From: Dehalococcoidia bacterium
GTDB lineage: Bacteria; Chloroflexota; Dehalococcoidia; Lucifugimonadales; JAGWBF01
Assembly (NCBI GenBank): GCA_965219565.1
Contig: OZ244780.1
Location: 2,476,256-2,540,255, forward strand
Length of the DNA stretch: 64,000 nucleotides
Direction: 5' to 3'
The notes below the pieces were generated by a model. That model saw only the letters and a program-made list of their open reading frames with translations. It did no database searches and was not told the DNA's origin. Position 1 is the first letter of the stretch. Every line of letters begins with the position of its first letter. Both the position numbers and the translations under genes were made by a program. Positions 34,071 to 57,684 of this stretch are shown piece by piece.

Positions 34071-34919
34071 CTATCTCTCGATGGGGGCCCTGACGATGCT
34101 TCCGTATTCGGTCCAGGAACCGTCGTAGTTGCGGACGTTGTCGTAGCCCAGAAGCCGGCTCAGCACGAACCAGGTGTGGGAGGAACGTTCGCCAATCCGG
34201 CAGTAGGCGATGGTCTCCTTGCCTCCGTCCACACCCTTGCCGCCGTATATGGCCGCCAACTCGTCGGCTGACTTGAACGTCCCGTCTTCCGCCACGGCGG
34301 TAGCCCATGGCACATTGGCCGCCCCGGGGATGTGGCCGCCCCTTTGTGAACCCTCTTGGGGAAGGTGTTCAGGAGCCAGAAGCTCTCCGCTGAACTCCGC
34401 CGGAGAACGCACGTCGACCAGGGCGATGTTCCCTGACTGGACGGCGCTCAAGACCTGCTCCCTGTAGGCGCGGATAGACTCGTCGGGGGGGCCGGCCGAG
34501 TAGCTCTTGGCTGCGTGGCTGGACGCGTCGGTGGTCAGCGGCCTGTCCTCGGCCACCCACTTGGCCCGCCCGCCGTTCATGAGCCGCACGTCGTCGTGGC
34601 CGTAGTACTTCATCTGCCAGAAGGCCCACGAGGCAAACCAGTTGTTGTTGTCGCCGTAGAGAATCACTGTGGTGTCATTGTCGATGCTCGACTGGCCCAG
34701 AAGCTCTTCCATCTCGCTCTGGCTGACGATGTCGCGGCTCACGTTGTCCTGAAGCTGGCTCTTCCAGTTCCAGGCGACGGCGCCGGCTATGTGGCCTTGC
34801 TCGTAGGCCATGGTGTCCACGTCCACCTCTACCAATCGGACGTTGTCGTCGCTTCCGTGGTCAGCCACCCACTGGGTGTCAACCAGGGACTCAGGATGCG
34901 CGTAGTCGGCCATAGCCAC
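34071..34919 (-). CDS. tandem-rhodanese sulfurtransferase (thiosulfate / 3-mercaptopyruvate type)
   Basis: 282 aa with two rhodanese domains and active-site loop YCRIGERSS. Confidence 0.85.
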   Translation of the reverse strand: MAMADYAHPESLVDTQWVADHGSDDNVRLVEVDVDTMAYEQGHIAGAVAWNWKSQLQDNVSRDIVSQSEMEELLGQSSIDNDTTVILYGDNNNWFASWAFWQMKYYGHDDVRLMNGGRAKWVAEDRPLTTDASSHAAKSYSAGPPDESIRAYREQVLSAVQSGNIALVDVRSPAEFSGELLAPEHLPQEGSQRGGHIPGAANVPWATAVAEDGTFKSADELAAIYGGKGVDGGKETIAYCRIGERSSHTWFVLSRLLGYDNVRNYDGSWTEYGSIVRAPIER

Positions 34920-35011
34920 ACCTCCGGATTGTGTTGCAGGGTTGTTGAAACTTGCGCTAGAGCAATCGAGTCGATATTAAGACGCCACGTTATAACTGTC
35001 AAATTGGCGAA

Positions 35012-44756: not shown

Positions 44757-45293
44757 ATGGCAATAGGAAAAATCAGCATCCTGGACCCCACCGCCCAGTC
44801 CAACACCCAGGACTCCGGCTTGGCCCCCAGGGTCGGCGGACTAGGGGGCGGGACGCTGGGCCTGATCACCAATAGCTGGCGGAGCTTCGACGTGGTGTCA
44901 AACCACATCGAGCAGATGGCCAAGGACCGGTACGAGGTCCGTGAGGTGATGAGGACCATCAACCCTGACGTTTCCAGCCCCACTCCCAAAGACACGCTGA
45001 ACATCCTCATCGACAAGTCGGACGCCGCCATCGTCGGCATGGGACATTGAGGGTCCTGCACAACGTGGAGTGTCCACGACGCAGTTTCCCTGGATGAAAG
45101 CGGAGTCCCTTCAGTCGTGATAGTCACGGAGCAGTTCAGCCGGCTGGCTTCCACGATAGCCAAGTCCCGGGGCAGGCCCGGCCTCCCCATCCTTGTCCTG
45201 CCAGCCAACATAGAAGACCTGTCCGACAATGAGTTGGAGGACTTGGCACATAAGACCCTGGACCAGGCGGCAGAGAAACTGACAGAGGTCTAG
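44757..45293 (+). CDS. UGSC-motif protein, candidate selenoprotein (in-frame TGA at 45048-45050 read as Sec)
   Basis: The frame stays open for 81 codons after the TGA, to TAG 45291-45293. Read-through gives DAAIVGMGH-U-GSCTTWSVHDAV... A hairpin starts 13 nt after the TGA. The next gene starts 8 nt after the TAG. Confidence 0.7.
45057..45083 (+). promoter_or_regulatory. SECIS-like hairpin downstream of the UGA
   Basis: CGTGG-AGTGT-CCACG (45064-45078) with an outer TGC/GCA pairing (45057-59 / 45081-83). The core stem begins 13 nt after the UGA. Confidence 0.45.
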
Positions 45294-54726: not shown

Positions 54727-54805
54727 CCCTCTCCCTCTGGGAGAGGGTTGGGGTGAGGGCCGCTCTGCCTCTTCCCCATTGAGGGGGAAGATTGAGATGG
54801 GGGTG
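54727..54805. repeat. hairpin repeat, copy C (type-1 unit plus type-3 unit, both forward)
   Basis: CCCTCTCCC-TCT-GGGAGAGGG + TTGGGGTGAGGGC (54727-54760). CTTCCCC-ATTGAG-GGGGAAG + ATTGAGATGGGGGTG (54771-54805). Confidence 0.8.
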
Positions 54806-54842
54806 AACGGGAGCGGCGCCTTGGCTCAGGGCTGCCCTAAAC

Positions 54843-56325
54843 TCAAGGCTGGTAGATAAAAGCGTCGGGCCTGAACGAGGCCCACGAAAACCACAGTGCG
54901 CTGGGGTAGTGGGGCAGCGGGTCCAGTCTGGCGCCCCCCAACGGTCCCGACGTAGCAAGTCCCAGTAGGTTCCAGGAACTCCCCGTCTCCTCGTCGACGA
55001 ACACGCCGTCCTTGCCGTCTGGGCTCCGGGAAAAGCTCAACCGGTCTCCGTCGACTATGGGGGAGAAGACACCTACGGACCCCACCTCGCGCCCCAGGGC
55101 GATTACCTGGTTGTCCAGGGCCGAGGCCGTGTGCGGCTCGTAGAACACCACGATAGGCTCGCCTCCGACCGTCGCTTCCACCACTGGCTGCTCCCGTAGG
55201 ACCGAGTAGGGCGCAGCGAAAGCCTCTCCGTTCAATTCTACGCCCCGCCACCCGCGTCATCCTCGACAACGTCACTTCGTTGGAACCCGACGTGATTCCC
55301 AGCTGGTTGTAGGTGTCGTAGCCTGCGTAGGCTGACATGCCATAAGGAATGCTCGTGTCGGGCTTCGAAAGGACTTTGCCGTCAGGGAAACTATCCTTGA
55401 AGTCCGACCAGGACACCATCGCCATAGGCAACTGCTCCAGCTTCACGCCCGCGTACACGCCAACTATGCCCTCTCCGCCGAACTCCTGCCACCAGGACTC
55501 GGTCTGCCGGTCATACATTATCAGGTTGAGGCGGCGCAGCTTGCCTGAAACGCCGAAGTCCAGGACCCCCCCATCCAACGTCCGCCTGTACACGAAGGCG
55601 GTGTTGCAGAGTGGTCAATAAGTGACCACAACAGGCTCTCCTCCCACCAAGTCGTTGACCAGCTCGTGGAACATCATTATCTGGATTGGGTAGGCCCTGT
55701 GGTCTCCGTCGATGCTGACCGTCTGCACCGGCTCCCAGTCGGCCAACCACTGGCTTGCCGATTCCACCGACTCAAACTGGGGTGCGTCGATGGACTCTAT
55801 GCCGTCCTTGGGAGGACCGCCGCCCCGGATTCCAAGAAAATCGACGGTCTTGAACCTGAAGTCCGTCTTCGGCCATTCGGAGGTGTTTATGAGCGCTTCG
55901 GCCAACTCACGGCGAGCGTCCGACCGGCTTATAGCTTGCACTCCTCCCTTGGAATACTCGACGGGTTCGGGCGTGGACGTGGGACGTGGCGAGGCGGTGG
56001 GATTGGGTTGAGGCGTCGGAACGGGTGTGGCTGTTAGCGGAGCCGTGGGACTGGGAGCCGCAGTAGGGCTGGGCGCAGGCATCGGTGTGGCATTGGGCGT
56101 TGGGCTTGGAGCCGGAGAGCCATCAGAACCGTCCCCGCATGCCGCAACAGCGACAACCAACATGACTGCGGCTGTCAACCTCAGGGCCAAAACCGCCGGC
56201 TTGGAATGGGAAATGCGACGACGGGAGAAACGCCTCGGGAGAACTTCGCCCTGATGCCCGGCTTCCAAAGAGGTCCTATATTCCTTCCGTGTAGACGAAT
56301 CGATCCGCTGTAGCAGGTTTGACAA
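54843..56325 (-). CDS. DUF3179 lipoprotein, interrupted as assembled: in-frame TGA at the conserved Cys (candidate Sec) plus an apparent 1-nt frameshift near 55242
   Basis: Lipobox VAVAAC and a Pro/Thr/Ser linker. DGDHRAYPIQIMMFHELVND...VVVTY-TGA-PLCNTAFVY...IMYDRQTESWWQ continues in the same frame (tracked ORF 54826..55593). The C-terminal part (NGEAFAAPYSVL...) is in the frame of ORF 54843..55235. Confidence 0.6.
55582..55601 (-). promoter_or_regulatory. SECIS-like hairpin downstream of the UGA in the DUF3179 gene
   Basis: On the coding strand CCGCCT-TCGTGTAC-AGGCGG, with the stem starting 13 nt after the UGA (55617..55615). Confidence 0.4.
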
Positions 56326-56449: not shown

Positions 56450-56767
56450 GTGAGCCCAAACGCAAGCAACCCACAATGCCCCAACTGCAACCGCAGGGAA
56501 TTGAAGGGCGGGCTGACCTTCGCAATAAAGACCAAGGAAAGCGAAAGCCTGTGCTGCTGGCTGTGCGCCTTCAAGAATCCGGCGATGCTCCGACGCTCCT
56601 TCTACACAGCCATCGTCGTGGGCGCGGGGCTTACCCTCCTGAACCAGGGCGACGCAATCTTTTCCGGCGCATGGCCGGGCGCCCTTTACTGGAAGGTCCC
56701 TCTCACCTTCGGAGTCCCCTTTTGCGTTGCAACCTGGGGAGCGCTCTCCAACGCACGGCGTCAGTAG
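56450..56767 (+). CDS. NrtS-like small membrane protein with N-terminal zinc-ribbon-like extension
   Basis: C-terminal RRSFYTAIVVGAGLTLLNQGDAIFSG...VPFCVATWGALS resembles the nitrate/nitrite transporter NrtS family. N-terminal CPNC...CCWLC. GTG start. Confidence 0.55.
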   Translation: MSPNASNPQCPNCNRRELKGGLTFAIKTKESESLCCWLCAFKNPAMLRRSFYTAIVVGAGLTLLNQGDAIFSGAWPGALYWKVPLTFGVPFCVATWGALSNARRQ

Positions 56768-57487: not shown

Positions 57488-57563
57488 TCCTCTGACTTCA
57501 AGCGACACGTCAACGAGGGGCTCTCTTCTGCGAGAGAGCTCCTCTTCCATTTCGAAAACTGCT

Positions 57564-57684
57564 CCTTCTCCACTGGCGGGAGAAGGTTGGGATGAGGGGG
57601 AACCAACGAAGCATGCAAAGGTGAGGTCTAACGAAAGTCACCTGTATCACCCTCACCCCAGCCCTCTCCCGTCAAGGGAGAGGG
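57564..57684. repeat. composite hairpin repeat, copy E (type-2 forward, type-1 inverted, the reverse orientation of copies A and B)
   Basis: CCTTCTCC-ACTGGCG-GGAGAAGG + TTGGGATGAGGGGG (57564-57600). CACCCTCACCCCA + GCCCTCTCCC-GTCAA-GGGAGAGGG (57648-57684). Confidence 0.8.

Follow-up and report, generated by a model that had tools for sequence, protein, structure and literature searches.

DUF3179 (PF11376) is a listed prokaryotic selenoprotein family with a UxxC/T motif (PMC9312934, PMC13188914), and both reviews trace the DUF3179 selenoprotein to the Olavius algarvensis symbiont study (PMC1976440). The gene considered here belongs to this family. It lies in a 64,000-nucleotide stretch of contig OZ244780.1 from a Dehalococcoidia bacterium (Chloroflexota; hereafter the window), and carries an in-frame TGA (55617..55615) that we read, with a probability of roughly 0.9, as a selenocysteine (Sec, U) codon as evolved in this lineage, within an exported DUF3179 lipoprotein. 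The grounds for this reading are that the TGA stands on an otherwise invariant Cys, that it is conserved across species, and that it is accompanied by a hairpin whose conservation at the nucleotide level is specific to the Sec forms. With the known DUF3179 selenoproteins the window gene shares a full-length Pfam domain, Sec at the first position of CxxC, a majority of homologs with Cys, and a hairpin in the coding sequence just past the UGA. It differs from them in being a Dehalococcoidia member of a family credited to a deltaproteobacterial symbiont study, and in an extra frameshift in the window copy. The breadth that we document below, 67 species-level genomes within one class, is not stated in either review (PMC9312934, PMC13188914). 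Searching for homologs annotated with Sec, as the original prediction had proposed, recovers both the UxxC/T listing in these reviews and a homolog that NCBI names 'DUF3179 domain-containing (seleno)protein'. Within the class, the BSepDB paper counts two Dehalococcoidia metagenome-assembled genomes, which encode 46 and 49 selenoproteins, among the most selenoprotein-rich bacteria (PMC13326102). The window gene adds one more member to a family that is already known, as are its Sec form and the use of Sec in this class.

Two further systems offer a comparison for the RNA signal. The reference bacterial Sec insertion element is the selenocysteine insertion sequence (SECIS) of Escherichia coli fdhF, with G23/U24 in its loop, an 11-nt spacer and a bulged U. 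Like it, the DUF3179 hairpin of the window is a coding-region stem-loop directly 3' of the UGA, with an apical-loop GU at a nearly fixed distance (G25/U26, counted from the U of UGA). Unlike it, the hairpin has a 13-nt spacer, a perfect 6-bp stem without a bulged U, and an 8-nt loop, and there is no sequence similarity between the two. The second system lies within the window itself: a gene of the UGSC family (NF041046), which encodes an unrelated small protein of cytoplasmic type, shares with the DUF3179 gene the UxxC motif, a conserved TGA, the 13-nt spacer, a 6-bp stem and GUG(U) in the loop. Its GU stands at G23/U24, and its loop is 3-5 nt long, against 8 nt in DUF3179. This shared geometry had been part of the original prediction, and it is recovered here with the UGSC stem read as CGUGGA/UCCACG.

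The upstream open reading frame (ORF; 55615..56325, minus strand) ends in ...LVGGEPVVVTY and runs directly into the TGA, in agreement with the coordinates and description first given for it. Beyond the TGA the same frame starts without interruption as PLCNTAFVYRRTLDGG, and a longer stretch of its translation reads PLCNTAFVYRRTLDGGVLDFGVSGKLRRLNLIMYDRQTESWWQEF. The TGA had been assigned to a conserved Cys of a C-x-x-C pair, and both the PF11376 hidden Markov model (HMM) and alignments of homologs place it there. When the TGA is translated as Cys and one base is removed to repair the frameshift discussed below, the product matches PF11376 in a single stretch over HMM positions 1-291 of 292, at 296.9 bits (gathering cut-off 27; E = 2e-88). 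In relatives, the segment ahead of the TGA occupies HMM positions 1-64, its last residue standing immediately before the codon. A search for DUF3179 homologs returned more than 4,000 proteins, and C-P-L-C-N is invariant in all 40 of the 40 full-length homologs aligned, so that the TGA corresponds to the first Cys. Among the matches listed, the three nearest to the window protein, at 86-87% identity, are 244-aa database fragments beginning just past the TGA, which indicates that gene callers have broken these orthologs at the same codon.

The likely start codon is a TTG at 56268-56266; both the TTG and an AGGA ahead of it are conserved in five sequences. A lipobox Cys codon follows at 56139-56137, where ...AVMLVVAVAAC-GDG fits the pattern [LVI][ASTVI][GAS]C as judged by eye; homologs show LSAAC, LTAC or LAAAC in this position. 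Because this lipobox (VAAC) is followed by a Pro/Thr-rich linker, the protein is probably tethered to the membrane on its outer side. The long upstream in-frame extensions in some relatives contain no additional domain. NCBIfam holds no DUF3179-specific model, and its sole match to the protein is a spurious one on the Pro-rich linker.

The TGA is widely shared. A scan of 596 Gb of genome sequence (one genome per species) for the DNA pattern T-[Y/F]-TGA-P-L-C-N-[T/S]-A gave 71 matches, against about 4 expected by chance on our own estimate; 67 of these are DUF3179 genes and 4 are unrelated. All 67 genomes with a TGA-bearing DUF3179 gene are Chloroflexota/Dehalococcoidia (a SAR202 bin among them), the frames are intact on both sides of the codon, and every locus of sufficient length stays open for 253-266 codons past the TGA. 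A scan of metagenomes that allowed TGA, TGC or TGT at the codon returned at least 120 matches, and among the 120 listed 118 were Cys forms (TGC/TGT) and 2 were Sec forms. At the syntenic loci L001-L003, from three assemblies, and L075 and L076 (94-95% DNA identity), the gene is split at the TGA in every case; read directly, L001-L003 have the same TGA with no further stop and no frameshift, and the codon recurs in relatives at 79-95% DNA identity. The TGA is thus kept in orthologs open on both sides, namely the 67 species-level genomes, the 2 metagenome contigs, L075 and L076. The Sec forms also share the peptide FV[YF]RRT where Cys forms have [IVL][AV]F[DE]RR, a difference that would be expected of an RNA element constraining the codons.

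The hairpin provides the more specific signal. Folding confirms each element of the structure originally proposed (55601..55582, 13 nt after the UGA, with a 6-bp stem and the 8-nt loop UCGUGUAC), and the hairpin is present in both the minimum-energy and the centroid fold. Its distance from the UGA falls in the range of about 11-20 nt that characterizes bacterial SECIS stem-loops, which bear G(U) in the apical loop as this one does. Of 69 distinct Sec forms, 68 form all six stem pairs; none of 110 Cys forms does, their commonest value being three. Across the hairpin codons scored (Thr ACC, Ala GCC, Phe UUC, Val GUG, Arg AGG, Arg CGG and Thr ACG), third codon positions have an entropy of 0.1-0.37 bits in the Sec forms and of 1.4-1.8 bits in the Cys forms, while just beyond the hairpin such positions are free to vary in either set. 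Hairpins of 6 bp with another stem sequence stand at the same place in L054, L059, L064 and L061; stems in the divergent subclade read CGGCCA/UGGCCG, CGGCUA/UAGCCG (with loop UGGUCUU) and CGGCCA/UGGUCG, and one further Sec sequence has CCGCCC/GGGCGG. These variants retain a loop containing G and U. The hairpin is accordingly present where the codon is TGA and absent where it is a Cys codon, with compensatory change limited to four divergent sequences. The Sec interpretation of the original prediction has in this way been strengthened, since TGA and hairpin are conserved together across 67 Dehalococcoidia species and Cys forms lack the hairpin.

The divergent Sec subclade (L054, L059, L064) also differs at the protein level, with PLCNTA[TM]VF[GS]R... 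after the TGA and WD in place of YD, and its hairpin loop has 7 nt. Two of its three loops contain GGUC. The same tetranucleotide occurs in the loop of E. coli fdhF.

Table 1. Positions of the DUF3179 gene, its recoding signals and the companion gene within the window.
Feature	Coordinates	Strand	Details
DUF3179 (PF11376) lipoprotein gene	54843..56268	minus	one UGA (predicted Sec) and a 1-nt insertion in the window copy; syntenic orthologs in L001-L003 and L074-L076
In-frame TGA, predicted Sec codon	55615..55617	minus	first Cys of invariant C-P-L-C-N; family motif UxxC
SECIS-like hairpin within the coding sequence	55582..55601	minus	stem 55601-55596/55587-55582 (CCGCCU/AGGCGG); loop 55595-55588, UCGUGUAC
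GGGG run with one extra G (+1 frameshift)	55243..55246	minus	from alignments with L001, L002, L025, L047 and L074
Stop codon of the DUF3179 gene, TGA	54843..54845	minus	at the family-typical C-terminus (...IYQP)
UGSC-family gene, predicted selenoprotein	44757..45293	plus	TGA 45048-45050; hairpin 45064-45078 (CGUGGA-GUG-UCCACG); 13-nt spacer

As a mechanism, we infer SelB binding, actual Sec insertion and the chemistry of the motif. The hairpin 13 nt past the UGA would act during translation as a bacterial SECIS element, recruiting SelB-GTP with Sec-tRNA(Sec) to the ribosome; the UGA would then be read as Sec and not as a stop, and translation would proceed into PLCNTAFVYRR.... The product would carry U-P-L-C where most members of the family carry C-P-L-C, and its selenol and thiol would most likely form a pair, outside the membrane, that is active in redox chemistry or binds metal. 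Thiol redox chemistry is suggested by one DUF3179 homolog, a fusion with thioredoxin-like and AhpC/TSA domains, and the heavy use of Sec at CxxC speaks for this motif as the catalytic or ligand-binding centre of DUF3179.

Several results weigh against Sec decoding. The stability of the hairpin is not significant against shuffled sequences (z = -0.12); a thermodynamic z-score is uninformative in such a G+C-rich sequence. Covariation in fixed columns is weak, with one compensatory pair whose score does not exceed that of shuffles; the test falls short of significance because the stem is almost invariant and because the three variants with 7-nt loops shift the pairing register. No Rfam SECIS model matches, either over the whole window at the gathering score or at the two UGA sites at E <= 10. 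We take the Rfam SECIS models to be specific to other lineages, which makes this weak evidence. No selA, selB, selD or tRNA-Sec gene was found within the window, the 64 kb of this genome that the search covered, as annotated with Pfam for about 40 ORFs over 1-46 kb and, for 43-64 kb, through the Pfam domains of genes on syntenic contigs. ARAGORN found no tRNA gene of any kind in the window and no tRNA-Sec in the window or in any fetched locus, and about 1.2 Mb of fetched loci contain no Sec machinery. A tblastn search of the window and all fetched loci with E. coli SelD (a query 99.7% identical to E. coli records) likewise gave no match. The two reviews, moreover, cite no experimental incorporation of selenium for the DUF3179 family. 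Finally, a frameshift unique to the window copy means that the full-length protein may not be made from this particular gene.

This frameshift bears on the most serious alternative, in which the TGA is ancestral and functional in the lineage and the window copy has been inactivated by the 1-nt insertion, so that no full-length selenoprotein is produced. The original prediction continued the frame past the TGA as the ORF 54826..55593, which follows the DUF3179 frame correctly down to about 55246; it overlooked the +1 G that interrupts the window copy there, and the true C-terminus lies in the ORF 54843..55235. At the insertion the window reads GGCGGGGCGTAGAA, where L074 has GGC-GGGCATCGAA. None of the 8 relatives compared (L047, L025, L002, L001 and L076 among them) has the extra G, not even those at 92-95% identity, and the insertion is the sole uncompensated coding indel over 20 kb of comparison with L076; the assembly is therefore not generally poor, and both facts favor a genuine lesion. 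On the other side, the repaired frame has no further stop or indel past the insertion, and its synonymous and nonsynonymous codon differences from L074 stand in equal ratio after the shift (25/9) and before it (44/17), so that any inactivation must be very recent or not real; the gain of one base in a run of G is, in addition, a typical consensus error. The window copy in its repaired frame shows no sign of decay, and from this and the equal ratios it follows that the insertion is either an assembly consensus error in the G-run or a very recent inactivating mutation. We place the odds of inactivation somewhat short of even. If the frameshift is real, translation of the window copy would give a Sec protein whose last third is scrambled.

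A separate observation concerns the distribution of differences along the gene. Of the codons that differ between L076 and the window (54843..56160), 25 fall in the last third of the gene and 8 in the two thirds before it, an unevenness that suggests recombination within the DUF3179 gene among close relatives.

Structural comparison gives a lead of a different kind. An AlphaFold model of a DUF3179 homolog is confident overall (predicted local distance difference test score, pLDDT, 87.9; predicted template modelling score, pTM, 0.83). A sequence search of the PDB found no solved structure related to DUF3179, and Foldseek found no match in the PDB at E <= 0.001. Weak local Foldseek matches to Rieske domains were obtained (5cxm_A, probability 0.99, TMt 0.55, 94 columns; also 8hn2_A and 3c0d_B), and one DUF3179 member has a weak match to PF13806 (E = 0.053). 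The family has an invariant His 17 residues ahead of C/U-x-x-C. In Rieske proteins the motif is C-x-H...C-x-x-H, and the His/Cys spacing of DUF3179 recalls the spacing of that motif. In contrast to Rieske [2Fe-2S] domains, DUF3179 does not have all four Rieske ligands and is about three times larger, and we claim no membership of that group. One could nevertheless picture DUF3179 as an extracytoplasmic protein with a degenerate Rieske-like site formed by the His, the Sec/Cys and the second Cys, its first ligand having been swapped for selenium in the Dehalococcoidia; the same proposal would, separately, take the frameshift as real and the strain as losing the gene. We consider this picture unlikely.

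A genome-wide reassignment of TGA (e.g., to Trp or Gly), or readthrough by a near-cognate tRNA without Sec machinery, would be compatible with the failure to find such machinery in the window. It would leave several features unexplained: the DUF3179 gene itself terminates on TGA at the usual C-terminus of the family (homologs end in ...IYQP or ...IYQPS), TGA is the called stop of 11 of the window's 47 confident ORFs, homologs have Cys at this residue, as in the classic Sec/Cys exchange, and a conserved downstream hairpin would be unnecessary for a genome-wide change. That the gene uses TGA as its own terminator points to local recoding and not to an altered genetic code, and reassignment is in our view highly improbable.

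It is barely credible that the locus encodes two separate genes, with an N-terminal polypeptide of 92-204 aa and a C-terminal one of 244 aa. Gene callers do split the locus of every relative in this way. The split falls, though, between HMM positions 64 and 65 of a single Pfam domain and within the CPLC motif; the predicted structure is one compact fold over the junction (pLDDT >= 94 around the motif); and the start called for the 244-aa ORFs is a non-conserved Met 12 codons downstream. An ordinary nonsense mutation or sequencing error at the Cys codon (TGC/TGT to TGA), for which a single base change would suffice and to which the frameshift would add a second lesion in the same gene, has a negligible probability given that the same TGA stands between intact frames in 67 species-level genomes and 2 metagenome contigs, that independent assemblies concur, and that the accompanying hairpin is exclusive to TGA forms.

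Public calls for the DUF3179 gene in L001-L003, L075 and L076 consist of a 92-204-aa and a 244-aa piece, stored as separate proteins, and those for the UGSC gene in the same loci consist of a 97-aa and a 58-aa piece or of the 97-aa piece alone. As both genes are split in every public gene call examined, the selenoproteome of these Dehalococcoidia, which are abundant, is under-annotated. A lineage-wide signature is available for detecting such genes and joining them correctly, combining a TGA on the Cys of CPLC, the peptide FV[YF]RRT and the RNA motif ACCGCCUUCGUGUWCAGGCGG, which begins 12 nt past the UGA with an A that stands ahead of the stem.

The UGSC gene had been put forward as a second UGA site, and it proves to be real: its TGA and hairpin are conserved in four relatives (L075, L076, L001 and L002). 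The match to NF041046 (UGSC_fam) reaches 78 bits on an 85-aa fragment, and the curated cut-off of 125 bits refers to the whole protein. The closeness of two conserved selenoprotein genes, no more than 10 kb apart, lends indirect support to the presence of Sec machinery in this genome, as do the selenoprotein-rich Dehalococcoidia genomes of the BSepDB paper. When the window was scanned for further TGA codons open on both sides, no credible candidate emerged beyond the DUF3179 and UGSC sites. Known Sec forms also exist among rhodanese-related sulfurtransferases, and the window encodes a tandem rhodanese-domain protein (34071..34976, minus strand) with no in-frame TGA.

Over the 47 confident genes of the window, on our own choice of ORFs, the stop codons are TAG in 30, TGA in 11 and TAA in 6, a predominance of TAG that seems unusual for a genome of 59.5% G+C. 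Perfect intergenic hairpins occur at 54727..54747, 54770..54791, 57662..57684 and 57515..57544, between convergent or adjacent genes, with the arms CCCTCTCCC/GGGAGAGGG found twice and TCTTCCCC/GGGGAAGA also present. They are probably terminators or repeats similar to repetitive extragenic palindromic (REP) elements, and L074, L047, L025 and L002 all retain the block at 54.7 kb. Beside the DUF3179 gene stands a 105-aa ORF (56450..56767, plus strand) with an N-terminal CxxC...CC and a hydrophobic C-terminal half; a syntenic 105-aa gene, for which no Pfam family is on record, keeps this position in L075 and L076.

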